The notes beneath the pieces were generated by a model, which was not told where the DNA came from, made no database searches, and worked only from the letters and a program-made list of their open reading frames with translations. Position numbers and translations under genes: made by a program. A DNA stretch of 64,000 nucleotides, taken from contig JBPCON010000035.1 of assembly GCA_051000215.1 (NCBI GenBank), positions 7,852-71,851 of the forward strand, given 5' to 3'. Every line of letters starts with the position of its first letter. Within the stretch, counting starts at the first letter, position 1. The stretch is from Acidimicrobiales bacterium (lineage in GTDB: Bacteria > Actinomycetota > Acidimicrobiia > Acidimicrobiales > JACDCH01). Of this stretch, positions 43,182 through 63,812 are shown piece by piece.

Positions 43182-44446
43182 TGGCTCTAGCCGACGTCGA
43201 CCTTCTCGACCTCGATCGCTGGGCGCGAGACGGTGCGCCGCACGCGTGGTTCCACGAGCTGCGGCGCGAGGCGCCAGCGTGGCGGCACCCCTCACCGGAC
43301 GGCGGGCGCGGCTTCTGGGTGATCACGGGCTACGACGATGTGGTGGCCCTCGGTCGCTGCCCGCACGTGCTGTCGTCCGACCAGGACAACGGGGGTGTCA
43401 CCGGGCTGGGTCCAGGCGATGAGCTGCAGGCGGTGTTCGACAAGACCCTCGCCGATCTCAACGTCGGTGGCCGCGCAGCGTCTGACGCGGCGAAGCACCT
43501 GCTCACACTCGACCCGCCCGAGCACACCGCCTACCGCAAGATCGTCAACAAGGGCTTCACACCTCGGATGATCGGCTTGCTCGAAGGGAGGGTCAGCGAG
43601 CTCCTCGACGACCTGCTCGATCGTCACGCGCGAGGCGAGGCCTTCGACCTCGTGCCCAACGTCTCGATGCCGCTCCCGATCCACGTCATCGCCGAGATGA
43701 TCGGCGCACACCCCGACGACCATGGCGATCTGGTGCGATGGAGCAACGAGGCCATTGCCAGCACCGACCCCGAGTACTCGAGCGGCCCTGGCTCGCAGCT
43801 CAACGCGGTCATGCACCTCGTGCAGTACTTCAGCGGGCTGCGCGCCGAGCACGAGGCGCACCCCGCCGGCGACCTCATCACCACGCTGCTCGACGCCGAG
43901 GTCGACGGCGAAGCCCTCACCAACGCGCGTTTCATGCTGTTCCTGATCCTGCTCACCGCTGCGGGCAACGAGACGACACGCACTGCCATCAGTCACTGCG
44001 TGCTCGAGCTGGCGCGACATCCCGAGCAATGGCATCGGCTCAAGGACGATCCCGGCCTCATCCCTGCAGCCGTCGAGGAGCTGCTGCGCTACGCGTCGCC
44101 GGTCATGTACTTCCGCCGCAACGCGCTCGAGGCGATGGAGCTCGCGGGGTCGAGCGTCGAGCCAGGCGACATCGTCACGCTCTGGTACATCGCTGCCAAC
44201 CGCGACGAGGCCCAATTCGACGCCCCCGATCATTTCGACGTCGGACGCACACCGAACCCTCAGATCGCGTTCGGTGGTGGCGGCCCACACTTCTGCCTCG
44301 GCGCATCGCTCGCCCGCCTCGAGGTGCGGGTGCTGCTCGAGGCCCTCGTCGAGCGCTACGACTCCATCGAGCTCGCGGGACCGTTCGAGCGTGTGCGTTC
44401 GAACTTCATCCAAGGCATCAAGCACCTGCCCGTGGTCCTCTCCTGA
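43181..44446 (+). CDS. cytochrome P450
   Basis: AGNETT (I-helix), EELLRY (ExxR), heme loop FGGGGPHFCLGASLAR. TGATG junction. Confidence 0.92.
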   Translation: MALADVDLLDLDRWARDGAPHAWFHELRREAPAWRHPSPDGGRGFWVITGYDDVVALGRCPHVLSSDQDNGGVTGLGPGDELQAVFDKTLADLNVGGRAASDAAKHLLTLDPPEHTAYRKIVNKGFTPRMIGLLEGRVSELLDDLLDRHARGEAFDLVPNVSMPLPIHVIAEMIGAHPDDHGDLVRWSNEAIASTDPEYSSGPGSQLNAVMHLVQYFSGLRAEHEAHPAGDLITTLLDAEVDGEALTNARFMLFLILLTAAGNETTRTAISHCVLELARHPEQWHRLKDDPGLIPAAVEELLRYASPVMYFRRNALEAMELAGSSVEPGDIVTLWYIAANRDEAQFDAPDHFDVGRTPNPQIAFGGGGPHFCLGASLARLEVRVLLEALVERYDSIELAGPFERVRSNFIQGIKHLPVVLS

Positions 44447-44473
44447 CTGTCGAAGTGAAGGTGCAGGTCTGAC

Positions 44474-45493
44474 GTGCACGCATCCAACGATCTGCCGCGG
44501 CTCGAAGCAACGCTGCGCGACGCCTTTGCTGCGTTGGAGGGTCGCGGCTGGGGGCGGGGCGACATACGACATGCTCTCGTCAAACTCGTTGATCGCCGGC
44601 AGGTCGCTCTGTTCGACGCGCTCGTCGTGCTCCCAGGCGAAGGCGCCGGTCTCGAGGCGTGGGCGCGACACAACGGCCTCGCTCTCGACAGAGTCGCGAC
44701 CATGGCGCGCACGCTGCACGCGCTGCTTACGAGGCTGCCCCGACTCGCGCCCGATCACGCTGCCTCGTCGCCGGCCGGCAACATCGACGTAGCGGTCCTC
44801 GAGCGGGTGCGCGCTCTGTTGTCTAAGGCTGAGTCGACGACGTTCGAGGCCGAAGCCGACGCCCTGAGCGCGAAGGCGCAGGAGATGATGGCAAAGCATT
44901 CGATCGATCGCGCGCTGCTGGAGGGGCGCGCCGTGAGCGGTGCGACAGTGGCGACGCGTCGATTCCTCATCGAGGATCCGTATGCCAGGGCACGGTTCAC
45001 GCTCTTGAGCGAGGTGGCCAGAGCGTGCGGCTGCGATGCCGTGCTGCTCGAGCCGCTCGGCATCGCCAACGTCTTCGGCTTCGGTGATGACTTGACAGCG
45101 GTCGACCTCCTCTACACATCCCTGCTTGTTCAGGCGAGCACAGCGGTCGCCGCGGCGCGGCCGCCCGGGCGGCGCGCAGCCTCGCAGTTGGCCGCGTTCC
45201 GGCGGGCCTTTCTCGTGGCGTTCGCGCAGCGCGTCGGGCTACGCTTGACTGCTGTTCGCAGCGACGCTGTCCACGAGGCGCAAATCGCGCACGGCGACAG
45301 CATCCTGCCGGTGCTCGCGAACCGGCGGTCGCTCGTCGAGGCGCACATGGTGCAAGCCGCGCCCAACTCGCGCCGGATGTCACAACGTCTCAGCGACGCC
45401 GGTGGCTACCAGGCCGGCCAGTCGGCTGGTGACCGGGCGACGTTCAGCCACCAGGCGACTCTCGCCGGGGGACAGCGGGCGCTCGGCGAGTAG
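44474..45493 (+). CDS. DUF2786-domain hypothetical protein
   Basis: RVRALLSKAESTTFEAEADALSAKAQEMMAKHSIDRA is the characteristic DUF2786 helix pair. Confidence 0.65.
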   Translation: MHASNDLPRLEATLRDAFAALEGRGWGRGDIRHALVKLVDRRQVALFDALVVLPGEGAGLEAWARHNGLALDRVATMARTLHALLTRLPRLAPDHAASSPAGNIDVAVLERVRALLSKAESTTFEAEADALSAKAQEMMAKHSIDRALLEGRAVSGATVATRRFLIEDPYARARFTLLSEVARACGCDAVLLEPLGIANVFGFGDDLTAVDLLYTSLLVQASTAVAAARPPGRRAASQLAAFRRAFLVAFAQRVGLRLTAVRSDAVHEAQIAHGDSILPVLANRRSLVEAHMVQAAPNSRRMSQRLSDAGGYQAGQSAGDRATFSHQATLAGGQRALGE

Positions 45494-50233: not shown

Positions 50234-51442
50234 ATGGAGTTCGGGATATTCATGCAGGGCTACGTCCCTGGTCCGGCGGCCCACGACACCGAGAGCGAGC
50301 ACGCAGCGCTTCACGACGAGGTCGATCTCGCCATCCACGCCGACAAGAACGGATGGAAGTACGCGTGGGTCACCGAGCACCACGCGCTCACCGAGTACAG
50401 CCACATCTCCTCGAGCGAGGTGTTCCTCGGCTACCTGGCGCACGCCACCGAGCGCATCCACCTCGGCTCGGGCATCTTCAACATGAGCCCCCGGGTCAAC
50501 CACCCTGTCCGCAACGCCGAGCGCATCACCATGCTCGACCACTTGAGCAACGGACGCTTCGAGCTGGGCACGGGCCGAGGCGCGGGCAGCCACGAGATCG
50601 CAACGTTCAACATCAAGGACTCGGGCTCGACGCGAAGCGAGTGGGACGAGGTCATCAAGGAGCTCCCCCGCATGTGGGAGGAGCGCGACTACACGTTCCA
50701 GGGTGAGCACTTCAGCCTCGACACGCCGCACAACATCCTGCCGAAGCCATACGGCAAGGGGCACCCGCCGATCTGGGTTGCGTGCGGCAGCCCGCCGACG
50801 TTCGCCAAGGCGGGAACGCTGGGCATCGGTGCCCTTGGCTTCAACTTCTCGCCGATCTACTCGCTGCAGCCCCAGATCGACTCCTACAAGGAGGGCATCG
50901 CAGGGTGCACGGAGCCGCTCGGGCAGTTCGTGAACGACAACGTGATGGTCACCAACGCCGTCGTGTGCATGGAAGACCGCGAGCACGCTCGTGCGATCGT
51001 GCTCCGCGAGTGCCGCGACTACCTCACGACGCTCGTGTGCCTCTACCACGACACGATCCCCAAGCCCGACCACGCGCGGGTCTGGCCCGAGCCTCCCCGT
51101 GGGCTCGACGAGTCGACGATCGATTGGGCGATCGAGAACGGCAGCTTGCTGTGTGGCAACCCAGAGGAGGTCTGCCACCAGCTCGAGGCCTACGCCAAGG
51201 TCGGCGTCGACCAACTCGTGTTCGGCGTCCCCGGCGACATGGTCAGCCACGACGAAGCCATCGAGAACCTCGAGACGTTTGGACAGCAGGTGATCCCCGA
51301 GTTCGACAAGGACCCGGTGCACCGCACGACGCGCATGCGCGAGACCGCCGTCCCCAAGTACAAGCCGTTCAACGCCGAGCCGCCCGCGATCGAGACGGTC
51401 TACGACCGGGCCCGGGTTGTCGCCAGGGATGTCCGCCTGTAG
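50234..51442 (+). CDS. LLM-class (luciferase-like) flavin/F420-dependent oxidoreductase
   Basis: MEFGIFMQG...YAWVTEHH...LSNGRFELGTGRG...FGQQVIPEF. Confidence 0.85.
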   Translation: MEFGIFMQGYVPGPAAHDTESEHAALHDEVDLAIHADKNGWKYAWVTEHHALTEYSHISSSEVFLGYLAHATERIHLGSGIFNMSPRVNHPVRNAERITMLDHLSNGRFELGTGRGAGSHEIATFNIKDSGSTRSEWDEVIKELPRMWEERDYTFQGEHFSLDTPHNILPKPYGKGHPPIWVACGSPPTFAKAGTLGIGALGFNFSPIYSLQPQIDSYKEGIAGCTEPLGQFVNDNVMVTNAVVCMEDREHARAIVLRECRDYLTTLVCLYHDTIPKPDHARVWPEPPRGLDESTIDWAIENGSLLCGNPEEVCHQLEAYAKVGVDQLVFGVPGDMVSHDEAIENLETFGQQVIPEFDKDPVHRTTRMRETAVPKYKPFNAEPPAIETVYDRARVVARDVRL

Positions 51443-51504
51443 AAAGCAGGGCATACCGAGAACGTCGAGTGTCGATACGCGCCGCGGGCGCGAGGAGGGT
51501 GGAG

Positions 51505-53133
51505 ATGCGCGCAGCGCTTCGTGATCCGGAGATCCTGCATCGGCGCCGCTGGCTCACGCTGCTCGTGCTGTGCATCAGCCTCATCGTCATCACGCTCGAC
51601 AACACGATCCTCAACGTCGCGCTGCCGACGTTGGCCAAGCCACTGGCTCAGGGCGGGTTGGCGGCGTCGTCGAGCCAGCTCCAGTGGACCGTCGACGCCT
51701 ACACGATCGTGTTCGCCGGGCTGCTGCTCACGGCAGGGAGCTTGGGGGATCGTTTCGGGCGCTACCGAGGCCTCGCCATCGGGCTCACGATCTTCGGCAT
51801 CGGCTCCCTGGCCTCGTCCTTCGCTGGCTCGGCCAACGTGTTGATCGCCACTCGAGCGCTCATGGGCGTCGGCGGCGCGTTCATCATGCCGTCGACCCTG
51901 TCGATCCTCACCAACGTCTTCACCGATCCGGCCGAGCGCGGCAAGGCGATCGGCATCTGGGCTGGCGTGTCGGCGCTCGGCATCGGTCTGGGCCCCATCA
52001 GCGGCGGGACCTTGCTGAGCCACTTCTGGTGGGGCTCGGTGTTCCTCGTCAACGTGCCGATCGTGATCGCGGGTCTCGTGCTCGGCTTCTTGCTCGTCCC
52101 CGAGTCACGCGATCCCTCGAAGCCCCGGCTCGACCCTCTCGGAGCCGCGCTCTCGATCGGAGGTTTGACCGCGGTGCTGTGGGCGGTCATCGAGGCACCG
52201 TCGCACGGTTGGAGCTCTGTCGAGGTTCTCCTTGCGTTCGTCGTTGGCGCGGTCATCCTCGGCTCGTTCTTCGCGTGGGAGCTGCACACCGATCACCCGA
52301 TGCTCGACATGCACTTCTTCGAGAACCCTCGCTTCACCGCAGCGAGCGGCGCGATCACCCTGACGTTCTTCGCGCTCTTCGGAACGCTGTTCCTGCTGAC
52401 CCAATACCTGCAGTCGGTGCTCGACTACTCGACCGTCGAGGCCGGCGCCGTGCTGTTGCCCCAAGCCGCAACGCTGATGGTGTGCGCGCCGCTGTCGAAC
52501 GTGTGGGTGCAACGCTTCGGCAACAAGCGCGTCGTGACGACCGGGCTTCTCATCGTCTCGGCTTCGCTTTTCGGGTTTCTCCTCTTCACGCCAGAGAGCA
52601 GCGTGCTCACCGTCATCAGCGTCTCGATGGTCATGGGCATCGGGATGGCCAACATCATGGCTCCCGCGACCGACTCCATCATGGGGTCGTTGCCCCGGGC
52701 GAAGGCCGGTGTCGGCTCGGCGGTCAACGACACGACGCGCCAGGTCGGCGGAGCCGTCGGGGTCGCTGTGCTCGGCTCGCTCCTGTCGAGCCGCTACAGC
52801 AGCGCGGTCACCGACAAGCTCGGCGCGGGGTTCGACGCGAAGCTCCTCGGCCCCGTGAAGCAGGGGGTTGGCCAAGCCGTCGGCATCGGGCGTTCGGTGC
52901 CAGGAGGCGACGCCATCGTCGACGCTGCTCGCGAGGCCTTCGTCGGGGGCATGCACGTCGCTGCCGTCGTTGCGGCGTGCGTGACGCTGATCGCCGCCGC
53001 CGGTGTTGCGAAGTGGCTGCCCGCAAGGCCCCGCGACGACGAGATCGTCAACGCCGTGCGAGGCGAGGCGCCGCCGAGCACCCCCACTGGCGAGCCCGCT
53101 GCAGGGGAGCTCGTGGGCGAGCCCGCGAGCTGA
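51505..53133 (+). CDS. MFS transporter, DHA2 (EmrB/QacA-like, 14-TMS) drug:H+ antiporter family
   Basis: LDNTILNVALPT, WTVDAYTIVFAGLLLTAGSLGDRFGR motif, about 14 hydrophobic segments. Confidence 0.88.
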   Translation: MRAALRDPEILHRRRWLTLLVLCISLIVITLDNTILNVALPTLAKPLAQGGLAASSSQLQWTVDAYTIVFAGLLLTAGSLGDRFGRYRGLAIGLTIFGIGSLASSFAGSANVLIATRALMGVGGAFIMPSTLSILTNVFTDPAERGKAIGIWAGVSALGIGLGPISGGTLLSHFWWGSVFLVNVPIVIAGLVLGFLLVPESRDPSKPRLDPLGAALSIGGLTAVLWAVIEAPSHGWSSVEVLLAFVVGAVILGSFFAWELHTDHPMLDMHFFENPRFTAASGAITLTFFALFGTLFLLTQYLQSVLDYSTVEAGAVLLPQAATLMVCAPLSNVWVQRFGNKRVVTTGLLIVSASLFGFLLFTPESSVLTVISVSMVMGIGMANIMAPATDSIMGSLPRAKAGVGSAVNDTTRQVGGAVGVAVLGSLLSSRYSSAVTDKLGAGFDAKLLGPVKQGVGQAVGIGRSVPGGDAIVDAAREAFVGGMHVAAVVAACVTLIAAAGVAKWLPARPRDDEIVNAVRGEAPPSTPTGEPAAGELVGEPAS

Positions 53134-53141
53134 CGAAAGGC

Positions 53142-54413
53142 TCAGGCTGGTTCGAGGGCGAGTGGGTCCTCGGCGAGGGCTGAGGGGAGAGGCGCGACAG
53201 GCAGTCGGCGGCCCGCGATGACCCCGATGCCGGCGGCCACGAGGCAGGCGACGCCGCCGAGTGCGGTGCCAACCCGCGCGCCCCAGACATCACACACCGC
53301 GCCGAGCAGGGGGCCGCCGATCGGGGTCGAGCCGAGGAAGACCATGGCTTGAAGCGCCAACACCCGTCCTCGCATCTCCGGCGCGGCACGAACCTGCACG
53401 ATGGCTGTCGCGGCGGTGAGGAACGCGATGCTCGTCACCCCGACGAAGACCGAGACCGGGAAGGCCAAGGCCAACGACGGCACGGCCGCGAGCGTCAGCA
53501 TCGCCGCGCCGAAGCCGACGGATGCGACGACCAGGTCGTGCACGTGGATCGCTTTGCGACGCGCCGTGGCCAACGCCCCGATCAGCGAGCCGATGCTGAT
53601 CACCGAGAACAAGAGCGTGAACGTGCCGTCGTCACCGTTGAAGGTGCGCTCGACGAACAGGGGCATCACGACGGAGAAGTTGAAGGCGAGGGTGCCGATG
53701 ACCGCCATCATCACGAGAGGGATCCAGAGGTCAGGCACGGTGCGGACGTAGCGCAAGCCCTCGCGCACCTGCCCTCTGTGACGCGGGGTGACCGGAGGAC
53801 GGCGCAGCTTCGTCGGGTCGATCAGCCAGAGGCACACGAGCACCGCGATGTAGGAGAGGCCGTCGACGGTGAAGCACCAACCGAAGCCCACCGTGTGGGC
53901 CAGCAGACCTGCCAGCGCCGGGCCGAAGATGCGCGAGCTCGTCATCTGCGCGCTGTTGAGGCTCACTGCGTTCTGCATGTCCTCTTCTTCGACCATCTCG
54001 ACGACGAACGCTCTTCGCGCCGGGTTGTCGAACGCGAGCGTGCACCCGCCAGCCACAGCGACGGCGTAGATCGCCCAGACAGGCGGGTCGCCAGTGAAGG
54101 CGAGCGCTGCCATCGCGAACGACTGCGCCATGGCAAAGGTCTGCACGATGAGAAGCAGACGCCTCTTGTCCGAGCGGTCGGCTACGAGACCTGCCCACGC
54201 GCCGAAGAGGAGCACAGGGGCGAACTGGCACGCCGCCAGCACGCCGACGGCGACGCCGTTGCCGGTGAGGTGCAGCACCAGCAACGTCTGGGCCACCAAC
54301 GTGAGCCAGTTCCCTATTTGAGAGATGAGCTGCCCGCCGAAGAAGAGCCGAAAGTTCCTGGTGCCGAGCGAGCGGAACGTCTCCCTCGTCGCGCCCTTGA
54401 ACCGATCGACCAT
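53142..54413 (-). CDS. MFS transporter (MFS_3 / EntS-like)
   Basis: About 12 TM segments. GLVADRSDKRRLL is the loop 2-3 motif. Confidence 0.85.
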   Translation of the reverse strand: MVDRFKGATRETFRSLGTRNFRLFFGGQLISQIGNWLTLVAQTLLVLHLTGNGVAVGVLAACQFAPVLLFGAWAGLVADRSDKRRLLLIVQTFAMAQSFAMAALAFTGDPPVWAIYAVAVAGGCTLAFDNPARRAFVVEMVEEEDMQNAVSLNSAQMTSSRIFGPALAGLLAHTVGFGWCFTVDGLSYIAVLVCLWLIDPTKLRRPPVTPRHRGQVREGLRYVRTVPDLWIPLVMMAVIGTLAFNFSVVMPLFVERTFNGDDGTFTLLFSVISIGSLIGALATARRKAIHVHDLVVASVGFGAAMLTLAAVPSLALAFPVSVFVGVTSIAFLTAATAIVQVRAAPEMRGRVLALQAMVFLGSTPIGGPLLGAVCDVWGARVGTALGGVACLVAAGIGVIAGRRLPVAPLPSALAEDPLALEPA

Positions 54414-54457: not shown

Positions 54458-55693
54458 CTATCCCGAAGTAGTGAGCACAGCCCAGGCATCGCCGAAGAGA
54501 TCGCCGACGGCGTCAGGACTCGCGGCGCGCTGGACAACGTCGATGGCCCGCTGGCCTTCCTCGGCGACGGCGTGGCGCGCAGCTTGTTCGAGCTCGACGG
54601 CTTCGTCCCAGGGGCCCGAAGGAGCAAACCGTTCGAGATCGTCGATCGCGTAGTTCAGATGCGAGACGGCGTGTTGGGCGGCGTCGACAGGGGCCTCGAC
54701 CGTGCTGGCCCAGGCATCGTCGACGACACCGATCGTTCGCTCGCTCGGCGAAGGTGGCGCCACCACGAGCAGGTCGTCGCGCTGCACGACGACAGCGGCG
54801 AGGTTGGCCAGTGCCAGCGTTTCGTCGTCGAAGTACTCCCCGTGACCGACAGCGGTACCCGTCGCCAGGCGCGTCGCGCCGAACCGCGGATCGCTCGGGT
54901 CGCGGCCGAAGGCTTCGCTGAGGGCGACGGGATCGAACGGCGCTCGCTCGGCATACACGTGCACATCCGGCGCGGCCAGCTCGGTCACGTTCTCGGCCTG
55001 CACCCCAGGGCTGCCGACGAGCACGACGTCATCGACGCGCATCCCCGAGCGAAGGCCGTTTGCGGCGACGAGAGACCCATAGCTGTGGGCCACGACGGTC
55101 ACCGATGCGTCATCGCGAAGGGGCAGGTTCGCCACGAAGCTCGAAAGCGCCATGCCGCCGGCAGCCGCATCGTCGTCCAGCAGCACGTCGAGTGGCCCCG
55201 GGGCGTCGTAGCCGAGCCAGGCGACGACGGCGACGTCGTCTCGCCCGTCGAGCGCACGCGCCGCGTCGAAGAGCCGACGAGCGCGGGGCACAAGCGTGGC
55301 TGCTTCGTTTGCAACGGTCGTCCCCATGCCGGGTACGACGATGGCGATGTGAGTGGCTCGTTCGAGGTCGCCGAAGACCTCGATGGCGTTCGTATGACCG
55401 CCGGCTTCGGTGAGCACGCGTGGCTCCGCGGTGCTCGCGGATGCGCCGGCGCGCTCGAACGCGACTCCGACCGCCGCGGCCCAGGAGTCGAGCGAAGCGC
55501 CGGTTCGCTCGTGGCAGCGGATGGCTGCGGCGAGCTCTCGCAAGGCGGTCTCGGCCGGGAGTCCCGAGAGGGTCATGGCGTCGGCCGCGTCCTCCAGCCG
55601 GCTGCTCGCCATGGTGAGCCGCGCCCCGCGATCAGGGCTGCTGCGGCCGATGGCGGCCAGGTGCTCGGGTACTGCCGCACAGCGCACGGTCAT
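54458..55693 (-). CDS. DUF1023-type alpha/beta hydrolase with helical N- and C-terminal extensions
   Basis: Core THIAIVVPGMGT...VAWLGYDAP...TVVAHSYGSLVA (nucleophile elbow)...VLVGSPG. About 100-aa helical N-terminal region. Confidence 0.8.
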   Translation of the reverse strand: MTVRCAAVPEHLAAIGRSSPDRGARLTMASSRLEDAADAMTLSGLPAETALRELAAAIRCHERTGASLDSWAAAVGVAFERAGASASTAEPRVLTEAGGHTNAIEVFGDLERATHIAIVVPGMGTTVANEAATLVPRARRLFDAARALDGRDDVAVVAWLGYDAPGPLDVLLDDDAAAGGMALSSFVANLPLRDDASVTVVAHSYGSLVAANGLRSGMRVDDVVLVGSPGVQAENVTELAAPDVHVYAERAPFDPVALSEAFGRDPSDPRFGATRLATGTAVGHGEYFDDETLALANLAAVVVQRDDLLVVAPPSPSERTIGVVDDAWASTVEAPVDAAQHAVSHLNYAIDDLERFAPSGPWDEAVELEQAARHAVAEEGQRAIDVVQRAASPDAVGDLFGDAWAVLTTSG

Positions 55694-55741
55694 CTCGTCT
55701 CCCCTGTTTCGGCCGGCTGTTGTCTCCTATCATGCAGTTCC

Positions 55742-58700
55742 ATGTCTATCCATGTCTCAGCGACTCGGATCCGCCTCGCGGTTGCCGGACCCGGGTTTGC
55801 CAGCGACGTCGTCCTCGACATGCGAGGGGGCAACCCCGACGTGGGCGAGCTGCTCGCCGTTGTGGCCCCCGACATCGAGGCGGTCGGTCTCGTCGTCGAC
55901 GGCGGGTTCGTGCCAGCGGCGCGAGCGTTGCGAGATGCCGGGCTGCACGACGGCGCGCTCGTCGAGGTGGCCACGGCGCGACGAGCGGCCCGCCCCTCGA
56001 GTGCCGCTGGGCGTTCGGGTGCGCTCGTCGTGGTGGAGGGCCTCGACGCTGGTCGCCGCATCGCGATCAGCCCGGGAACCCACATCGTCGGCCGCGGCGC
56101 AGCGCTCGACTTGAGGCACCCCAGCGTGTCGCGCGAGCACGCCGCTCTTGTCGTGGGCGCTTCCGGGTCGGTCGCGATCGGCGACCTGGGCTCGCGCAAC
56201 GGCACGTGGCGCGGCCGGCGCGCGATCGGGCGGCCACTCGAGCCGCTCGCCCCGGGCGAGCTCGTGCGGATCGGCGCGCTCGACATCGCGGTGCGTGCCG
56301 CGCGCGGCGATGACCGGCCGCTCCGAGTCGAGCGACCGCACGCCGCGACCACACCGTTCAATCGTCAACCTCGTCCCGCGCCGGATGTCGAGCTCGCCGC
56401 CATCGTGACGCTCCCCGCGCCGCCGAGGGCACCTTCCAACCACACCCCGTTCTCGGTCGCCGCCTTTGCCCTCCCGCTGCTGCTCGCTGTGCTGCTGGTG
56501 AAGCTCGCCGGCAACCCCACCTTCGCCCTGTTCGCGCTGCTCAGCCCGGTGATGATCGCCTCGACGGCGATCGAGCAGCGCCGGCGCGGGGCGCGCATGG
56601 GACGGCGGGCTGCTGCTGGCCGTCGCAGCGATCTCGTTGCTCTCGCATCTGCGCTCGAGGCGTCCATGAGCGCGGAGCGCGACAGGAGGTTGGGTGCGCT
56701 GCCGGACTTGGCGGAGGTCACCCGGTGGGCTTGCGCACCGAGTGTGCGGCTCTGGGAGCGACGCGGCGTGCACGGCGACTTCCTACGCGTGCGCGCTGGC
56801 ACCGGCGACGTGCCCTGGCTTCCCTCGCTCGATGGGCCGAGCAGCGCCCATGCCGAAGACGTCGAGTCGATCCTGGCGAGCCATCGTCGTCTCGTCGACG
56901 TCCCACTCGAGCTCGACCTGAGCGCTGGTGGCGCAGTCGGAGTTGTCGGCGACCGCGCTGCCGCGCTCGCGGTTGCACGCGGCATCGTTGTGCAAGCAGC
57001 GGTTCATCAGGGACCGGCTGATCTCGCGATCGCGGTCCTGACCGCTGACGAAGCCGATCGCGACTGGGAGTGGGCGAAGTGGCTGCCCCACACCCGAGCA
57101 GTGGGCGGTGTGGCGTTGCTGGCACGCGGGCGAACCGAGGCAGCTGCCATAGCCGAAGCGCTCGTGGCGGCGGGGAGCGCACCACTTCACCCGAACGCTC
57201 TGGTCGTCGTCGACGGAGAGCAGCTCCTCGAGGGGCGCCGCTCACCGGTGCGCGCGCTGCTGCAGGGACGCGCCGCCCTTTCAGGCATCGTGGTCGCGGC
57301 GTCGCTCGACCGCCTGCCAGCGGCGTGCACGGCGGTGATCGAGCTGCGAGGCCCTGATGGACTCGCGATGCTGCGGGGTGCACGCGGCGACCGCACGTCG
57401 ATGTTGGTTTCAGGCTGCGCGCTCGACGTCGCTCGCGATTGCGCGCGGCACCTCGCGCGGTTCGACGATCCCGAGCTCGAGGCCACAGGCGCGGGGCTCC
57501 CGAGCGACGTTTCGCTCCTCGAGCTCGTCTCGCCGCCCGATCAACCCCTCGCCCTCGCCATCATCGATTCTTGGGCCGGCGCCGGAATCGACGCCAGGCC
57601 TTGCGCGCTGCTCGGGGTCGGCCTCGACGGCGTGATCGGGGTCGACCTCGACCACGACGGCCCCCACGCGCTGATCGCAGGGACGACAGGCTCCGGGAAG
57701 AGCGAGCTCCTCCGCAGCCTCGTTGCTGGCCTCGCCGCCCGCCTCCCGCCGGAGCAGCTGAACTTCCTCCTCATCGACTTCAAAGGAGGCGCGGCGTTCG
57801 ACGCGTGCGCCCGGCTCCCTCACTGCGTCGGCCTCGTCACCGACCTCGACGAACACCTCGCCGAACGGGCGCTGCGTTGCTTGGAAGCCGAGCTTCGTCA
57901 TCGCGAGCTGCTGCTGAGATCGTGCGCGGCGGCCGACCTCGGTGCCTACCGGCGCGCCAACGGAGTCGGCGCACTGCCCCGCCTCGTCGTTGTCGTCGAT
58001 GAGTTCGCGACGCTGAAGGCTGAGGTGCCCGGGTTCATCGACGCTCTCGTGGGTGTCGCGCAACGGGGCCGGTCGCTCGGTGTGCATCTCGTGCTCGCGA
58101 CGCAACGCCCAGCAGGCGCGGTGAGCGACAACATCCGAGCCAACACCGGGCTACGCATCGCTCTGCGTGTGCACGACGCGGCCGACGCCACCGATGTGAT
58201 CGGCGACGCCGCGGCTGCAGCGATCCCGCGGGCTCGACCAGGGCGCGCCGTGGTGCGATTCGGACCGGGCGAGCTCGTCGCGATGCAGACGGCGCGGATC
58301 ACTGGCGTGCCGTTCGGCGCGACCGACGCGTCGATCGTCATCACGCCGTTCGCCTTCGGATCCGGCGACCGACGAGCATCGAGCGTGGAGGGCGATGGCG
58401 CGACCGACCTCGACGCCTTGGTCGGCGCGTGCTGCGACGCGTTCGAAGTCAGCGGAGCACCGCTGCCGCGGCGACCCTGGACGGAGCCGTTGCCAGTCGA
58501 GCTCGACCTCGACGACCCTGAGCTGGCAACGCCAACACCGGCCAGCGACGACATCGTGTTCGCCTTGGCCGATGACCCGGACAGCCAGCGGCGCCACCCG
58601 CACGCTTGGCGGTTGCGCGACGGCAACCTGCTCGTGTGGGGGATCGGCGGGAGCGGCACGAGCACGGTCCTCGCTTCCATCGCGCTCGCCGCGGCCGCGC

Positions 58701-59947
58701 GCACTTCTCCTGCGAGGTTGCACATGTACGTGATCAGCCACGGGGCCGGGGAGCTCGCGGTCCTCGGGGAGCTTGCGCACTGCGGTGGCGTCGTCGAAGC
58801 AGCGGATCGAGAGCGTGAGGTGCGGACGTTGCGAATGCTGCGCGCTGAGCTCGCAAGGCGGCGATCGTTGCGCGGCGAGCAGAGGGAGGAGCTGCCGAGG
58901 CTGCTGTTGTTGCTCGACGGCTACTCAGGGTTCGCAGCCGAGCGCGCCGACGCGGCGGGCATGGCCGTACTTGATGACCTGCTGCGGGTGTTCGCCGACG
59001 GGAACGAGGTCGGCATCCACGTCGCCATCACCGCAGATCGCGTCGGTGCCGTGCCTGTTGCGGTCAGCTCCCTCGCCCGCCAGCGCCTGCTGCTTCGCTT
59101 GGCCGATGCCCACGACTACGGCCTTGCCGGGGTGGCGGGGCGGGCCTTGCCGCGCTTTGCGCCGGGTCGGGGCATCGATGCCGAGAGCGGTCGAGTCGTT
59201 CAAGTCGCCCAGCCGCGAGGTGGGCTCGACGCCGCAGTGCGGGCGATCGCGGACCGTGCTCGGTCTGCGCCGCGGGCTCGCGGTGGGCCGTCGCCGATCG
59301 GAGTGCTCCCGAGCCTCGTCGGCCACCGCGACGTCATCGGGGCGGCGCGTGTTGGCTCGCGCCCATGGCTGCTGCCCATAGGAATCGGCGAACGGACCCT
59401 GCGCCCGGCCGGCTTCGAGCTGTACGAGGGCGAGCACGCGCTGGTCGCCGGGCCGCCCCGGTCGGGGCGCAGCAGCGCGCTCATGGCCGTCGCGAGAGCG
59501 TTCGCCAGCGCGGTGCCCGACGGTCGCATCGTCGCGATCGCCGGACCACGATCGCCGCTCGGCGCGTGGCCCGGCGCGCTGCGCACAACCGACGCAGCAC
59601 AGGCTGTCTCAGGGCTCGCGGCGCGCGCGGGCCCGACGCTGCTGCTCGTCGACGATGCCGAACTGGTCGAGGATCCGACGGGCGTGCTCGCAGCCCTGCT
59701 CACCCAGCAGCACGCCGACCTCGTGATCGTGGCCGCAGGTCGGGCTGAGACGCTGCGTACGGCGTACGGCCATTGGACCAGAGGGCTGCGCCGCTCGAAG
59801 CTCGGCGTGTTGCTGCAGCCGGACACCGACCTCGACGGTGAGCTCATCGGCCGCGTGTTGCCTCGTCGCTCGCCTGTCGTGCTCTCCGCTGGGCGCGGGT
59901 GGCTCAGCGGTGGCGGCGAGCTGGAGGTCGTGCAGCTCGCCACTTGA
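55742..59947 (+). CDS. EssC/EccC-like type VII secretion FtsK/SpoIIIE-family ATPase: ubiquitin-like N-domain + FHA + 2 TM + three P-loop domains
   Basis: FHA: HIVGRG..SVSREHA..LGSRNGT. TM: FSVAAFALPLLLAVLLV / FALFALLSPVMIA. D1: PHALIAGTTGSGKSELL with VVVVDEF. D2: GIGGSGTS. D3: GPPRSGRS. 1401 aa from ATG 55742. Confidence 0.88.
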   Translation: MSIHVSATRIRLAVAGPGFASDVVLDMRGGNPDVGELLAVVAPDIEAVGLVVDGGFVPAARALRDAGLHDGALVEVATARRAARPSSAAGRSGALVVVEGLDAGRRIAISPGTHIVGRGAALDLRHPSVSREHAALVVGASGSVAIGDLGSRNGTWRGRRAIGRPLEPLAPGELVRIGALDIAVRAARGDDRPLRVERPHAATTPFNRQPRPAPDVELAAIVTLPAPPRAPSNHTPFSVAAFALPLLLAVLLVKLAGNPTFALFALLSPVMIASTAIEQRRRGARMGRRAAAGRRSDLVALASALEASMSAERDRRLGALPDLAEVTRWACAPSVRLWERRGVHGDFLRVRAGTGDVPWLPSLDGPSSAHAEDVESILASHRRLVDVPLELDLSAGGAVGVVGDRAAALAVARGIVVQAAVHQGPADLAIAVLTADEADRDWEWAKWLPHTRAVGGVALLARGRTEAAAIAEALVAAGSAPLHPNALVVVDGEQLLEGRRSPVRALLQGRAALSGIVVAASLDRLPAACTAVIELRGPDGLAMLRGARGDRTSMLVSGCALDVARDCARHLARFDDPELEATGAGLPSDVSLLELVSPPDQPLALAIIDSWAGAGIDARPCALLGVGLDGVIGVDLDHDGPHALIAGTTGSGKSELLRSLVAGLAARLPPEQLNFLLIDFKGGAAFDACARLPHCVGLVTDLDEHLAERALRCLEAELRHRELLLRSCAAADLGAYRRANGVGALPRLVVVVDEFATLKAEVPGFIDALVGVAQRGRSLGVHLVLATQRPAGAVSDNIRANTGLRIALRVHDAADATDVIGDAAAAAIPRARPGRAVVRFGPGELVAMQTARITGVPFGATDASIVITPFAFGSGDRRASSVEGDGATDLDALVGACCDAFEVSGAPLPRRPWTEPLPVELDLDDPELATPTPASDDIVFALADDPDSQRRHPHAWRLRDGNLLVWGIGGSGTSTVLASIALAAAARTSPARLHMYVISHGAGELAVLGELAHCGGVVEAADREREVRTLRMLRAELARRRSLRGEQREELPRLLLLLDGYSGFAAERADAAGMAVLDDLLRVFADGNEVGIHVAITADRVGAVPVAVSSLARQRLLLRLADAHDYGLAGVAGRALPRFAPGRGIDAESGRVVQVAQPRGGLDAAVRAIADRARSAPRARGGPSPIGVLPSLVGHRDVIGAARVGSRPWLLPIGIGERTLRPAGFELYEGEHALVAGPPRSGRSSALMAVARAFASAVPDGRIVAIAGPRSPLGAWPGALRTTDAAQAVSGLAARAGPTLLLVDDAELVEDPTGVLAALLTQQHADLVIVAAGRAETLRTAYGHWTRGLRRSKLGVLLQPDTDLDGELIGRVLPRRSPVVLSAGRGWLSGGGELEVVQLAT

Positions 59948-60002
59948 CAACGGCCGGAGATGATCGAAACTGCATGAGACATCACCGAATCCAGGAGCAA
60001 CC

Positions 60003-60281
60003 ATGAGCGTACGCACCGTCGCCGACCCTCTCGCGAAGGACGCGGTCACCCACCTGCGATCCACCCTCGCCGGCGGGTTCCTCGAGACCATCCAGCAGGT
60101 GGTGCGCGACGGGGAGACGCTGAGCCGCCCCGATCTCTGGGACGGCCCGCGGGCCATCCAGTTCCGCCAGAGCTGGCCAGAGCTCCGAGGCGCGCTGCAA
60201 AACGCCCACTCCGACCTGACCGAGCTGGCCGGCTCGATCGACGCCATCACCACAGCGATCATGCACGCCGGTGGCGCGTGA
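60003..60281 (+). CDS. WXG100-family (Esx-like) small secreted protein
   Basis: AGGAG RBS 5 nt before the ATG. 92 aa with two predicted helices around a central W-D-G (PDLWDGPRA). Confidence 0.75.
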   Translation: MSVRTVADPLAKDAVTHLRSTLAGGFLETIQQVVRDGETLSRPDLWDGPRAIQFRQSWPELRGALQNAHSDLTELAGSIDAITTAIMHAGGA

Positions 60282-60565
60282 CCGTCGAGCGCCAGTTCGC
60301 AGCGCTCGCCGCGACGGAGGCGGCGTGCGCATGCCGATCGGCGGCGGGCGCGTTGCGCGCGGACGCCGCGGATCGAGCCGTCGTGGCGGCACCCGCCCTC
60401 GGCTCGTGGCAGGGCCCTCACCGTGCGACGTTCGACGATGCGGTCGATTTGCTCGCGAGAGCCTCAGGCAGGCTGGAGCGCGCTGGGCTGGCGCTGGCAG
60501 CAGCGCTCGACGACGCCGCGGTGAGGGCCGCTGGCCCGGGCGCCGGGGTGACGAGCGGCTGGTGA
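60278..60565 (+). CDS. WXG100-like partner protein (divergent, Ala-rich)
   Basis: GTGA overlap with the upstream esx-like gene. 95 aa with a central W-Q-G (LGSWQGPHRA). Helical Ala/Leu/Arg composition. Confidence 0.55.
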   Translation: MTVERQFAALAATEAACACRSAAGALRADAADRAVVAAPALGSWQGPHRATFDDAVDLLARASGRLERAGLALAAALDDAAVRAAGPGAGVTSGW

Positions 60566-61593
60566 GAATCCCATCCACGGTGCCCGGCTACGTGCTCGGC
60601 GCGCCGCTCGGCCGTCGAGTCTGGTCGGCGAGACCAGCCGGCGGAGGCGACCCCCTTGCCATCAAGTTGCCGGGGCAAACCGCCGGCACAGCGCGTCGCG
60701 AGGCAGCGGCGCTCGCCGCTGTACGACACCCGAACCTGGTCAGGGTCCTCGACGTCGTCGACACTCCAGCGGGTCCTGCGCTGGTGTTCGCTCGGGCAGC
60801 GTGCACCTTGGCCGAACACGTTGCTCGATGCGGGACCCTGCCGCCGGGGGAGGTGGTCACCATCGGCTCCGCCGTCGCGGGTGCGCTCGCTGCGCTGCAT
60901 CGGCACGGGCTCGTGCACGGCGACGTCCACCCAGCCAACGTGCTCATCGCGCCGGACGGGACGCCGCTGCTCGCCGACCTCGAGCTCGCGGGTCCGCCAG
61001 CCGCGCCGGCAGCAATGACACCTGGGTTCGTCGCGCCCGAAGTGGCAGCCGGGGGCTGCGTGACCGCGAGCGCCGACCAGTGGGCACTTGCGGTCACGTG
61101 CAACGCTGCGCTCGACGAGGCAGTTCCCGAGCCGCTGCTCACCGCGCTCGAGGTCGCGATGGCGCCGTCGCCGACCGAGCGCTTCGCCGACGTCGAGGTC
61201 TTCGCTGCCGAGCTCCGTCGCGCGTGCACGCCGGCCCGACTCGCGCTGGCGGACAACTCGAGTCATCGGGCGCCGACCGGCCGAGGTGCTCGCGCGCTGA
61301 TGCGCAGCAGGTCGACCATCGCAGTCCCCACCACCCGGCGCTTCGGCCCGCGGCCCCCGCCGCGGACACGAGAGTCGCGTCGTCGAAGGCCGCTTTCGGG
61401 AGTCGCGCTGATCGCCGTAGCGGCTTCGGCAGGCGTCGGCGGTGTGCTGGTGCTACGAGCTCATGTTGGCGCCGCCCCGGAGCCGGCTGCGTGCGCGGCA
61501 CCAGCTCAGTTCGGCGACCGCTTCGACCCCGGCCGCGTGCCGATCATCGTGCGCACTGAGGGCGGATGCGACGCGGTAGCGACCCGGCGGTAG
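60562..61593 (+). CDS. membrane-anchored Hanks-type Ser/Thr protein kinase (divergent, non-RD)
   Basis: GTGA overlap. LAIK Lys, E in REAAALA, catalytic loop [11 protein letters not shown] in place of DFG, APE (FVAPE), DQWALA. C-terminal [21 protein letters not shown] plus a ~50-aa ectodomain. Confidence 0.75.
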
Positions 61594-61604
61594 GGTCGCC
61601 GGTG

Positions 61605-62228
61605 ATGGCGGATCAGTCGACGTTCGCTGCGCAAGCGATGCCCTTCATGGACTCGCTCTTCGCTGCTGCGATGCGCATGACACGCAATCGAGCCGACGCA
61701 GAGGACCTCGTGCAGGAGACGTTCCTCAAGGCGTACCGCGGCTTCGGCGGGTTCGAGGAGGGCACGAACCTCAAAGCCTGGCTCTACCGCATCCTCACCA
61801 ACACCTACATCAACACCTACCGCGCCAAGAAGCGCCGTCCCGAGGAGTCCGACCTCGACGACGTCGAGGACCTCTACCTGTACCGCAAGCTGTCATCGGG
61901 CGATGCAGCGGCGTTGGGACGTAGCGCCGAGGACGAGCTCTTCGAGCGCTTCACCGACGATGAGGTGAAGGGCGCGGTCGAGGCGCTCCCCGAGCAGTTC
62001 CGCATGGCCGTGCTGCTCGCCGACATCGAGGGTTTCTCGTACAAGGAGATCGCCGAGATCCTCGACATCCCGATCGGCACGGTGATGTCGAGGTTGCACC
62101 GGGGAAGAAAGGGCCTGCAGAAGCGGTTGTGGGAGTTCGCCACCCGGGAGGGCCTGATCACCGGGGACGCCACCGATGAGGCCGAACACGACGAGGTCCC
62201 CGCTGCAGCCGATGCAACGGGGACGTGA
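61605..62228 (+). CDS. sigH: ECF sigma factor, SigH/SigR type
   Basis: Region 2 [17 protein letters not shown]...[12 protein letters not shown]. Region 4 [26 protein letters not shown]. Followed by a ZAS anti-sigma gene. Confidence 0.88.
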
Positions 62229-62242
62229 GGGCGACAAGACAA

Positions 62243-62521
62243 ATGGCAGGACACGAGTGCGACGACGCGCTGCACACGATGTACCACTTCCTCGACGGGG
62301 AGCTGACCGAGGATCGACGTGCCCAGATCCAGGCGCACATCGAGGCGTGCCCGCCGTGCTTCGAGGGCTTCGACTTCGAGGCCGAGCTACGCCAGGTGAT
62401 CGCCAAGCGGTGCTACGAGGAGGTGCCGGAGGCGCTCCGCACCCGTATCGCCAGCGCGATCGACCACGAGCGGTTGCATCCGAGCGACGCGCCGAGCGAC
62501 TCTTCGAGACCCGACTCGTAG
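62243..62521 (+). CDS. rsrA: zinc-associated anti-sigma factor, RsrA/RshA type (mycothiol-system anti-SigR-like)
   Basis: N-terminal C (GHECDD) plus the H-x3-C-x2-C motif (HIEACPPC). Confidence 0.85.
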   Translation: MAGHECDDALHTMYHFLDGELTEDRRAQIQAHIEACPPCFEGFDFEAELRQVIAKRCYEEVPEALRTRIASAIDHERLHPSDAPSDSSRPDS

Positions 62522-62551
62522 CGGTTCCACCCGTCACCCTACGATCGTCTC

Positions 62552-62689
62552 ATGGTGCTCTCCGCCGTCGTCTGGCACTGGTGGCTCGGTGTGTTCTTGT
62601 TCCTGGCATCGCTCGGGATCCTCGTCGCGACCCTTGTTGGCTATCTCGTCAAGGTGCAGGCGCCGAAGTACCCCAAGAAGCGCTCGTGA
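62552..62689 (+). CDS. small hydrophobic protein (45 aa), possibly leaderless
   Basis: Hand translation: MVLSAVVWHWWLGVFLFLASLGILVATLVGYLVKVQAPKYPKKRS. A TACGAT -10-like hexamer ends 6 nt before the ATG. Confidence 0.45.
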   Translation: MVLSAVVWHWWLGVFLFLASLGILVATLVGYLVKVQAPKYPKKRS

Positions 62690-62741
62690 ATCGGCGTCGC
62701 CGTCAGAGCGCGCCTTCGATGTCGGACCGCTAGGCGAACCC

Positions 62742-63812
62742 GTGCCCGAACCGATCGACTGGGACGTCGCACGTCGCATCGCGGTGCGGGTCGGCGGCCG
62801 CGACCCGTTCGCATCGTCGTACCACTACGAGTCGCTCGGCCCCGATTTCGACGAGCTGACAGCTGAGGCTGAGGAGCTCGTCGCCACAGCCACCGGTTTG
62901 CGCTCGCTGGCCGGGCCGGCCCGCGCCCGGGTCACCGATCGAGCCGGTTGGGTCTCGGCCAACATCGCATCGTTCTCGCGGTTGCTGCGCCCCGTCACCG
63001 ACAAGCTCGGTGAGCGCATGACCGGCCCAACAGCCTTCGTCGCATCCAAGGCCACCGGCGCAGAAGTCGGAGCGCTCCTCGGGTGGATGAGCACGAGGGT
63101 GCTCGGCCAGTACGACCTGTTGATCATCGAGGACGAAGACCCTGAGGATCAGGACGTCGTCTACTACGTGGGGCCCAACGTGCTCGCGCTCGAGAAGCGC
63201 TTCGCGTTCCCGCCGCGCCAGTTCCGCTTGTGGCTGGCGCTGCACGAGGTGACCCACCGGGCGCAGTTCACCGGTGTGCCGTGGATGCGGGCCCACTTCC
63301 TCGGGCTGGTCGAGCAGAGCATGTCGATGGTTGATCCCGACCCGAAGCGCTTCCTCGAAGCGCTTCGAAGGATCCTCGACGGCATCCGTGAAGGTCGCAG
63401 CCCGCTCGAAGACGGCGGACTTCCCGCGCTCTTCGCCAGCCCGGAGCAGGCGGTCGTGCTCCAGCAGGTCGGCGGGCTGATGAGCCTCCTCGAAGGGCAT
63501 GGCGACGTCACGATGGACCGAGCAGGCGCGGGGCTGATCCCGTCGTCAGACCGCTTCAGCCGCGTGCTGCGCCAGCGCCGCCAGACAGCGAGACCGCTCG
63601 CCAAGGTGGTGCAGCGACTCATCGGGCTCGAGGCGAAGATGAACCAGTACGAGCAGGGCGAACGGTTCATAGCGGCCGTCGAAGCGGTCGGCGGCCCCGA
63701 ACTCCTCAACATGGCGTTCGTCGCCCCCGACCTGTTGCCGACGCTCGCAGAGATCAGGTCGCCCGCAGAGTGGGTTGCGCGAGTGCAGGTGCCGACTTCG
63801 ACGGTCGCCTAG
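62742..63812 (+). CDS. zincin-like metalloprotease (DUF2342 family)
   Basis: IDWDVARRIA N-terminus and the HExxH motif LALHEVTHRAQF. The start GTG 62742 is uncertain. Confidence 0.75.
   Translation: MPEPIDWDVARRIAVRVGGRDPFASSYHYESLGPDFDELTAEAEELVATATGLRSLAGPARARVTDRAGWVSANIASFSRLLRPVTDKLGERMTGPTAFVASKATGAEVGALLGWMSTRVLGQYDLLIIEDEDPEDQDVVYYVGPNVLALEKRFAFPPRQFRLWLALHEVTHRAQFTGVPWMRAHFLGLVEQSMSMVDPDPKRFLEALRRILDGIREGRSPLEDGGLPALFASPEQAVVLQQVGGLMSLLEGHGDVTMDRAGAGLIPSSDRFSRVLRQRRQTARPLAKVVQRLIGLEAKMNQYEQGERFIAAVEAVGGPELLNMAFVAPDLLPTLAEIRSPAEWVARVQVPTSTVA

Follow-up and report, generated by a model that had tools for sequence, protein, structure and literature searches.

A candidate compact type VII-like export module with an FHA-bearing ATPase and a membrane kinase in an Acidimicrobiales bacterium

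Can a type VII secretion system (T7SS) consist of little more than its ATPase, a pair of small WXG100-type proteins and a membrane kinase? This question is raised by a five-gene locus at positions 54458 to 61593 of the window, a stretch of 64,000 nucleotides from contig JBPCON010000035.1 (positions 7,852 to 71,851; assembly GCA_051000215.1) of an Acidimicrobiales bacterium. A preliminary description had placed a DUF1023 hydrolase, a 1401-amino-acid ATPase, two open reading frames (ORFs) of 92 and 95 amino acids and a kinase here, and all five were recovered at those positions, in a region of 70-73% GC. Our data make it fairly probable that a compact type VII-like export module is encoded at this locus and that its subtype, nearest in logic to the kinase-linked T7SSd and T7SSe, lies outside the published T7SSa-j scheme.

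The ATPase, which is of the EssC/EccC/TsxC-like kind, is encoded at 55742..59947 on the plus strand, and its domains are ordered as a ubiquitin-like domain, a single FHA domain, two transmembrane (TM) helices, D0, D1, D2 and D3. Pfam recognized FHA at residues 115-178 (E=1.2e-8) and FtsK_SpoIIIE (E=1e-50). The TM helices were placed by hydrophobicity and sequence at residues 237-257 and 261-277 (56450..56572, plus strand), a position that agrees with the two TM helices of EssC and TsdC (PMC11217815 supplement). Among the NCBIfam hidden Markov models (HMMs) the best was T7_EssCb_Firm; EssC matched residues 293-1254 with 441 bits (E=9e-132), EccCa gave 338 bits and EccCb 282 bits, and all type VII models stayed under their equivalog cutoffs (778 bits for EssC, TIGR03928; 509 for EccCa; 347 for EccCb). 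With 60 bits against FtsK (cutoff 1566) and 28 bits against TraB (cutoff 800), compared with 441 for EssC, the identity of the protein as a conjugative TraB/FtsK DNA translocase was rejected, and the earlier assignment to the T7SS side was upheld.

The FHA domain, the pair of TM helices and the three P-loop modules that had been noticed in this protein could all be confirmed, although the P-loop is canonical in D1 alone. In a 20-sequence family alignment the D1 Walker A motif GTTGSGKS (residues 647-654) and the DEF of the Walker B motif VVVVDEF (residues 749-755) are invariant, and this site (57680..58006, plus strand) looks active. The D2 P-loop reads GIGGSGTS (residues 967-974; 58640..58663, plus strand), with the family consensus GGSGT(S/T), and the site is probably non-catalytic because the Walker lysine is replaced. 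In D3 the lysine is changed to arginine (GPPRSGRS, residues 1237-1244; 59450..59473, plus strand; family consensus GPxRSGRS), and this domain is probably a binding or regulatory module. D1 was also compared with reference sequences taken from Fig. S2 of Garrett et al. by optical character recognition (OCR), whose errors limit the comparison. It scored similarly against EssC, TscC, TsdC, TseC, TsfC and TsgC, with 400-440 for the EssC-type sequences and about 230 for mycobacterial EccC. The comparison indicates only that D1 is not mycobacterial-EccC-like; it does not place the protein inside or outside the TsdC clade.

The N-terminus of the ATPase supplies two further elements. An AlphaFold 2 (AF2) model of residues 1-230, with a predicted local distance difference test (pLDDT) score of 86.5, has a beta-grasp domain ahead of the FHA domain (residues ~9-78, pLDDT >90; 55766..55975, plus strand) with the secondary structure beta-beta-alpha-beta-beta...beta. 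The family profile of this ubiquitin-like domain matches SAMP2 (PDB 2l32, E=7.6e-5). When 18 orthologues were scanned, PF21965 was matched by five and YukD weakly by two (E=0.04), with single weak matches to other ubiquitin families. No separate EsaB/YukD gene is found at the locus, and the sequence link of the fused domain is of the SAMP2 type, with YukD matched only weakly. The ubiquitin-like fold is supplied as free EsaB/YukD in T7SSb and inside EccD in T7SSa (PMC11217815). The fused domain would be a third supply route for this near-universal T7SS element, and from the fusion one may suspect a direct action of this module on the N-terminus of the ATPase. The FHA domain (residues 93-185; 56018..56296, plus strand) retains an intact phosphothreonine-binding set, in which Arg118, Ser130 and His133 are invariant and Asn153 is at least 90% conserved among 20 homologues. 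Its model superposes on the true phosphothreonine readers GarA/OdhI, FhaA and Rv1747, which were the top Foldseek matches. The FHA HMM of the family matches TsdC and TseC (E ~1e-12 to 1e-14; TsdC 1e-12), although the ubiquitin-like HMM was without a match in the N-terminal part of TsdC from O. uli, the reference used.

The gene for a bitopic membrane Hanks-type kinase of 343 amino acids (60562..61593, plus strand; Pkinase E=3e-19) closes the locus. A cytoplasmic kinase domain (residues ~5-190) is followed by a Thr-rich linker, a single TM helix (residues 280-298; 61399-61455, plus strand) and a tail of 45 amino acids outside the membrane. The label of pseudokinase was not adopted, because the protein retains the beta3 Lys, alphaC Glu, catalytic Asp, Asn and DxG Asp. 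The G-loop is degenerate (GAPLGRRV), HGDVHPAN stands in place of HRDxKxxN, and DLE in place of DFG; the protein appears to be an atypical kinase whose activity is uncertain. The T7SS-linked kinases of the related loci L002, L004, L006 and L007 retain DFG, and those of L004, L006 and L007 also have the catalytic-loop lysine (HGD/HAD-V-K-P-A-N), while L002 reads HGDVTAAN. Among the 120 nearest database homologues, 94 have HGDV[S/T]PxN together with DLG. The relatives form a large actinobacterial kinase family without the catalytic-loop lysine, and most of 40 inspected homologues (from P0243-P0360) have DP[A/V] replacing APE. In its topology the protein mirrors EssB/YukC and TscD/TsdD (TsxD), and for EssB the analogy is topological only. 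EssB/YukC is the T7SSb pseudokinase that binds the FHA domains of EssC, and the TscD and TsdD kinases are similar to it in topology (PMC11217815). The locus had been described as lacking all canonical membrane partners, which was an overstatement, since a ubiquitin-like domain, possibly of the EsaB/YukD type, is fused to the ATPase and the kinase mirrors the EssB/TsxD topology.

Between the ATPase and the kinase lie small protein 1 (92 amino acids, LWDGP; 60003..60281, plus strand) and small protein 2 (95 amino acids, SWQGP; 60278..60565, plus strand). The AGGAG ribosome-binding site, here 7 nt 5′ of the ATG at 60003, the central W-x-G in both proteins and the GTGA chaining that leads to the kinase were all as previously noted, with GTGA overlaps joining small ORF 1 to small ORF 2 and small ORF 2 to the kinase start at 60562. 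The preliminary description had likened the two proteins to the WXG100 substrates of type VII secretion. Taken singly they did not pass the WXG100 profiles; at the family level they do match WXG100 and Esx proteins, and it is at this level only that they appear to be divergent WXG100-type proteins. The family of small protein 1 is marked by a central W-D-G-P..A..FR..W and a conserved C-terminal tail, I..AGG. PF06013 is matched by 15 of 18 orthologues, and the profile built from these 18 matches B. anthracis EsxB (PDB 4j41, E=1.5e-4) with the WxG aligned, as well as other Esx proteins. When the ORFs surrounding 85 related ATPase genes were searched iteratively, relatives of small protein 1 were found to adjoin the ATPase in 59/86 loci, and an exhaustive search of 1.84 billion proteins gave 185 cluster representatives, nearly all of 90-95 amino acids, with some forming the N-terminal domain of proteins of 330-680 amino acids. 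Small protein 2 has the motif W-x-G...FD. Four of nine of its orthologues match WXG100 and four of nine WXG100_2, and their profile reaches EsxA/ESAT-6 at E values of 0.008 to 0.06. The T7SS-type core that had been proposed, a triple ATPase with a WXG100-like pair, is supported by these results.

Relatives of small protein 2 elsewhere are found just 5′ of Rhs toxins or as their N-terminus, which suggests that small protein 2 may serve polymorphic toxins as a targeting module or an adaptor. Large Rhs/YD-repeat toxins beside the ATPase were observed in L003 (14143-18927), L011 (11966-16633), L014 (14119-19233), L017 (11549-17155), L019 (1-4943), L024 (1-4315) and L028 (16064-22381). These Rhs toxins of the sister loci have an N-terminal domain related to small protein 2, or a stand-alone copy of it ahead of the gene.

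Alternatively, the locus could be a membrane signalling, cell-envelope or DNA-handling device and not an export machine, with the WXG-like proteins as intracellular regulators. A regulatory role of this kind has been proposed for some Streptomyces WXG100/BldB-type proteins. The degenerate D2 and D3 domains and the weak scores of the small ORFs against WXG100 would fit such a device, as would the fact that FtsK/SpoIIIE ATPases also move DNA, although the TraB/FtsK HMM matches are weak here (28-60 bits, against 280-440 for the EssC and EccC HMMs across D0-D3). The architecture of two TM helices followed by D0-D3 is T7SS-specific, and the sister loci encode typical T7SS cargo beside the ATPase, namely Rhs polymorphic toxins and enzymes fused to WXG or T7SS_signal domains. 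The neighboring extracytoplasmic function (ECF) sigma and anti-sigma factor genes could hint at a signalling context, but their synteny is confined to the three closest relatives. A function other than export is for these reasons regarded as improbable.

The DUF1023/Abhydrolase_8 serine hydrolase (411 amino acids; 54458..55693, minus strand; Pfam E=7e-36) is transcribed divergently from the ATPase, 48 bp upstream of it, as had been reported. This intergenic region (55694..55741) is presumed to be a shared promoter region. A consensus scan of 54.3-62.6 kb, which is uninformative at 70% GC, found no sigma-70-like consensus in the 48 bp and no terminator 3′ of the kinase, so that the promoter remains a presumed one. 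The hydrolase is without a signal peptide or TM segment. Its AF2 model (pLDDT 88.9) consists of an N-terminal helical hairpin (residues 9-84), an alpha/beta core (92-302) that resembles feruloyl esterases and monoglyceride lipases in Foldseek, and a C-terminal three-helix extension (316-409), and the triad Ser204/Asp254/His284 is invariant in 36 homologues. In L022, L026, L031 and L059, four of the six loci where such a hydrolase adjoins the ATPase, the hydrolase domain lies behind an N-terminal extension of about 230-270 amino acids, in a gene that starts right after the ATPase; among these four, the profile of small protein 1 matched the extension of L059 only. The database homologue P0151 combines T7SS_signal/WXG100 with Abhydrolase_8. 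T7SS lipases with helical targeting domains have been discussed (PMC11217815), and a literature search for DUF1023/PF06259 with T7SS returned nothing. Leaderless, with its triad intact and with helical hairpins as extensions, the hydrolase is probably secreted cargo and not a core part, and DUF1023 hydrolases, a family of unknown function, can be flagged as likely T7SS cargo.

How widely the arrangement occurs was determined from homologues of the ATPase. There are more than 800, almost all annotated merely as 'FtsK/SpoIIIE domain-containing', in Acidimicrobiales (best 59%), Actinoplanes, Pseudonocardiaceae, Solirubrobacteraceae, Egibacteraceae, Chloroflexota and Dormibacteraeota. When one genome was scanned for each species, 80 loci were obtained in Actinomycetota. 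Nearly all of their ATPases carry FHA, and the carriers include Streptomyces, Arthrobacter, Microbacterium, a Mycobacterium, Winkia, Rothia and Alloscardovia. The earlier statement that the FHA-bearing form is the Firmicute type, and that actinobacterial EccC normally lacks FHA, does not agree with this distribution.

Neighbor families in the related loci were obtained by all-against-all homology clustering of all ORFs, which divided the ATPases into two groups with several neighborhood types. In the subgroup of the window (21 loci in different species), the kinase occurs within 8-10 kb in 15 loci and WXG protein 1 in 14-16, and these are the only recurring families; small protein 2 is found in nine loci and Rhs toxins in some. 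The linkage of ATPase, WXG protein and kinase exceeds chance, the unit recurring in 14-16 of the 21 loci. The linkage and the domain identities were both directly observed, and the earlier view of the kinase as a dedicated component agrees with its being a conserved partner in 15 of the 21 closest loci. The gene order of L001 is identical to that of the window, while L002 has the WXG-WXG-kinase block inverted.

Identities between the window and L001 are 83% for WXG protein 1, as much as for the neighboring sigma factor, 59% for the ATPase, 57% for the hydrolase, 39% for small protein 2 and 36% for the kinase. The two lowest values, which indicate fast evolution, together with the shortened kinase and its atypical motifs, could be read as the decay of a fuller T7SS that has lost its partners and is no longer functional. 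Such a relic is very improbable, given that the five ORFs are without exception intact and show translational coupling, that a relative with an ATPase of only 59% identity has kept the arrangement, that small protein 1 is as conserved as a housekeeping-like sigma factor, and that the FHA pocket and the D1 motifs are invariant.

Other subgroups have different neighbors. One Acidimicrobiia subgroup has a WXG gene upstream and lacks the kinase, and the second ATPase group (group B) is linked to DUF58/transglutaminase membrane-protein genes or to Tad pilus genes. The subgroup of Winkia, Arthrobacter, Rothia and Alloscardovia has two extra uncharacterized envelope proteins, c20 (~945 amino acids) and c21 (~440 amino acids). 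The c20/c21 pair was also seen directly 5′ of the FHA-ATPase in Paeniglutamicibacter, Microlunatus and Friedmanniella (loci L012, L017-L020, L024, L025 and L028; in L012 at 2560-5397 and 5398-6657). c20 has a signal- or lipoprotein-like N-terminus and no Pfam match, and c21 has a TM helix at its N-terminus and, in Pfam, no more than a borderline match to Peripla_BP_1. The two are candidates for envelope parts of a different T7SS variant, or for a local form of TsdI/TsdH.

The partners of the known systems were searched for next to the module. Pfam scans of about 40 ORFs of the 64-kb window (the five of the module, ten from its flanks and another twenty large ones) found no match to EccB, EccD, EccE, mycosin, EsaA, EssA, EssB/YukC or free YukD, and the HMMs for c20 and c21 had none in the window. 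The EccB/D/E/mycosin, EsaA/EssA/EssB and TsdH/TsdI partners were not found at the 21 related loci either, which bears out the earlier observation that neither canonical partner set is encoded here. A TsdI-like ORF (large, with a Sec signal, a C-terminal TM helix and Ig-like domains) was not seen among the ~40 largest window ORFs or in the flanks of the 21 closest loci by a Pfam search made without signal or TM prediction or a TsdI query, which a TsdI-like gene without Pfam domains could escape. Likewise, no small single-TM ORF like TsdH lies between or beside the five genes and none is conserved in the related loci, although a poorly conserved one elsewhere could escape.

Two explanations of this parts list have to be considered. 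In the first, the ATPase with its ubiquitin-like and FHA domains and the kinase would be the only membrane parts and, with the WXG pair, would form a self-sufficient minimal exporter in which the ATPase oligomer is the channel. The ubiquitin-like domain and the kinase would then replace EsaB and EssB, and subunits of the EccB/D/E, EsaA and TsdI types would be unneeded. We regard this as possible but doubtful. If it were true, the module would be a separate T7SS subtype with a wide occurrence in Acidimicrobiia, Solirubrobacterales, Actinoplanes and their relatives. It would be the smallest known T7SS, with two membrane proteins. It would also be a good system for asking which protein is the true type VII translocation channel, a point still debated for T7SSb. 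In the second, the genes are real T7SS parts that borrow membrane components encoded elsewhere (EccB/D/E-like, TsdH/I-like or other), or they provide an accessory or alternative motor for another T7SS. This dependence is the main rival of the compact exporter and unlikely in our estimate, yet it has arguments on its side: all structurally characterized T7SSs have extra membrane subunits (PMC11217815), the sister subgroups have linked envelope proteins (c20 and c21, and the DUF58 and transglutaminase membrane proteins of group B), and the inspection covered 64 kb of the genome. Against it, no further partner recurs within 8-10 kb in the 21 loci of the window subgroup, the c20 and c21 HMMs are without a match in the window, and the module itself supplies a ubiquitin-like domain and an EssB-like partner. 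In addition, the D1 scores given above lie far from mycobacterial EccC, which makes simple paralogy to a canonical ESX system unlikely. A module dependent on unlinked partners would be one more entry in an already diverse catalogue.

For the compact export module that we favor, the following mechanism can be proposed, in which export, docking and phospho-control are modeled on T7SSa, T7SSb and the cited papers. The ATPase would oligomerize in the membrane, with D1 powering export. The two WXG proteins may pair as a hairpin heterodimer, and the C-terminal tail of small protein 1 may dock on the degenerate D3/D2, as EsxB does on EccC, so that the heterodimer would gate the motor or would itself be exported. 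The kinase would sit beside the ATPase like EssB/TsxD, and the FHA domain would read phosphothreonines in its Thr-rich juxtamembrane linker, made by the kinase itself or by another kinase, thereby switching assembly or activity. Since the kinase motifs are eroded, the protein may act mostly as a scaffold in the lineage of the window. The fused ubiquitin-like domain would stand in for EsaB/YukD or for the ubiquitin-like domain of EccD. The leaderless DUF1023 esterase/lipase-like enzyme, with helical hairpins on its flanks, would be a likely cargo.

Several observations weigh against this proposal. In the motor, D2 and D3 are without canonical Walker lysines, and each small ORF taken singly is below the WXG100 thresholds (E ~0.04). 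The kinase has a degenerate G-loop, no catalytic-loop lysine and DLE for DFG, and its identity to the nearest orthologue is no more than 36%, which makes its part in phospho-control uncertain. No polytopic channel or envelope-spanning partner is linked, and every structurally studied T7SS needs extra membrane subunits, either EccB/D/E or EssA/EssB/EsaA (PMC11217815). Recurrence of the ATPase, the two WXG proteins, the kinase and the DUF1023 hydrolase as one unit had been suggested as a check; the ATPase, WXG protein 1 and the kinase do recur together, but the hydrolase adjoins the ATPase in only 6/86 loci. Finally, a WXG/LXG signature was undetectable by Pfam in the N-terminal hairpin of the hydrolase, and a YxxxD sequence (YAIDD) in its C-terminal helix was rejected as a signal because it is not conserved in orthologues.

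The surroundings of the module were also inspected. As had been described, it is flanked by transporters of the major facilitator superfamily (MFS) and by a sigma/anti-sigma pair, which Pfam identified as MFS_1, MFS_3, ECF sigma and zf-HC2. MFS_3 transporters ('transmembrane secretion effector', EntS-like) are found at 53142-54413 (minus strand) and 28510-30198 (plus strand) of the window, at 7399-8661 in L001 and at 4112-5677 in L002; that they lie beside or near the module both here and in the two closest relatives is probably inherited synteny. On the 3′ side the order of ECF sigma, zf-HC2 anti-sigma, a tiny ORF and a Zincin_2 metallopeptidase is kept in the three closest genomes (window 61566-63812, plus strand; L001 16038-17634; L002 17149-19409). 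Since there is an overlap of 28 nt between the listed sigma start at 61566 and the kinase stop at 61593, a position further downstream may be the true start. The real MFS_1 gene lies inside 50782-53133 (plus strand; match at residues 263-660), in another frame than a 537-amino-acid ORF at 51570-53183 (plus strand) that has a GC content at third codon positions of only 0.51 and no Pfam match; the program-made list of ORFs misleads at this point.

A Tad/type IV pilus-like pair is found some 40 kb upstream of the module, a ParA/TadZ-like P-loop protein and a T2SSE ATPase of the CpaF/TadA type (E=7e-55), followed by a sortase and a 436-amino-acid ORF without a Pfam match (13410-15312, 17372-18301 and 18121-19431, all plus strand). 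Homologous Tad genes (T2SSE, SAF/RcpC-like) directly adjoin the FHA-ATPase in eight loci (L006, L007, L044, L045, L056, L063, L075 and L079), which recalls the adjacency of T7SSg/h and Tad reported from Firmicutes. Elsewhere in the window, 33485-34873 (plus strand) encodes an adenylate/guanylate cyclase fused to a YHS metal-binding domain. A 535-amino-acid ORF without a Pfam match at 43292-44899 (minus strand) may not be a real gene, because it overlaps a DUF2786 gene on the opposite strand.

The wider interest of the locus is that its family extends kinase-linked T7SSs to Acidimicrobiia and to many soil and aquatic Actinomycetota outside the current T7SSa-j scheme. An FHA domain with an intact pocket, encoded beside a dedicated kinase, also offers a simple genetic test of phospho-regulated T7SS assembly. 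The locus had first been presented as the best candidate for an undescribed system in the window, a claim that does not stand in view of two publications. Garrett, Higginson & Palmer 2024 define T7SSc-j, in which kinases, phosphatases and FHA proteins are common, with a kinase and FHA in T7SSc, d, e and j (PMC11217815); the supplement of that paper was searched for the genera found here, and there were no matches. The Wang et al. 2026 preprint describes a pathway from kinase through phosphothreonine to FHA that controls Esx in Schaalia, and many fusions of the FHA output protein EsrG to EccC, that is, FHA-EccC fusions under kinase control (PMC13622651).

In comparison with T7SSa/ESX, the module shares an actinobacterial host, a heterologous WXG100 pair linked directly to the ATPase and a ubiquitin-like domain within a membrane core subunit, which in T7SSa is EccD. 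It differs in that EccB/D/E and mycosin were not found in the window, the EccCa and EccCb scores are under their cutoffs (338<509 and 282<347 bits), D1 is much closer to the EssC type than to EccC, and EccC is without FHA. With T7SSb/Ess it has in common an FHA-bearing triple ATPase, a ubiquitin-like component (here matched only weakly to YukD), a putative WXG100 substrate and a bitopic partner with a cytoplasmic kinase-fold domain, which in T7SSb binds the FHA domains of EssC. In contrast to T7SSb, the EssC model score is 441 bits with a cutoff of 778, there is one FHA domain with an intact phosphothreonine pocket in place of two without a pocket in EssC, and the ubiquitin-like module is fused in place of a separate EsaB. 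Furthermore, the kinase of the window keeps Lys/Glu/Asp/Asn/Asp and has no YukC family match, and EssA and EsaA were not found.

The Esr-Esx pathway (PMC13622651) resembles the locus in having a Ser/Thr kinase and an FHA output domain, and these are the only two of its parts present; the genes for MoxR, vWA, the beta-propeller sensor EsrA and the phosphatase are not at the locus. The pathway is reportedly almost confined to the class Actinomycetes, whereas the closest relatives of the window are Acidimicrobiales. T7SSg of Acetivibrio and Paenibacillus is a short five-part system of two WXG100 proteins, a ubiquitin-like protein, an ATPase and one further protein (PMC11217815). Its TsgC is without FHA, it has no kinase, its ubiquitin-like protein is separate and its host is a Firmicute, but its short parts list sets a precedent for a simple T7SS.

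The closest parallels are with T7SSd, an actinobacterial system of Olsenella and Bifidobacterium that comprises WXG100, an FHA-ATPase with intact phosphothreonine motifs, a membrane kinase, TsdH and the large TsdI, with no ubiquitin-like protein, and with its Firmicute sister T7SSe (PMC11217815). As in T7SSd, the host belongs to Actinomycetota, the FHA-ATPase keeps the GR/SxxH/NG phosphothreonine motif, and a Ser/Thr kinase spans the membrane once, with its kinase domain at the cytoplasmic N-terminus, although the motifs of the copy in the window are atypical. With both T7SSd and T7SSe it shares WXG100 genes beside the ATPase, of which T7SSe has two, as here, and Rhs toxins and 'reverse' lipases as candidate cargo. 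Unlike T7SSd, no TsdH- or TsdI-like gene was found in the window or the related loci, the ATPase has 1401 amino acids and not 1563, there are two WXG genes and not one, the ubiquitin-like domain is fused to the ATPase while T7SSd is reportedly without such a component, and the atypical kinase has an ectodomain of only 45 amino acids. The D1 similarity, measured against OCR-derived references, does not place the ATPase specifically with TsdC. In summary, the module is not wholly new and is a variant of the recently described kinase-linked T7SS subtypes; judged from sequences and models, what would be new relative to T7SSd is a parts list with no TsdH or TsdI found, a fused ubiquitin-like domain, two WXG genes and a minimal kinase ectodomain.

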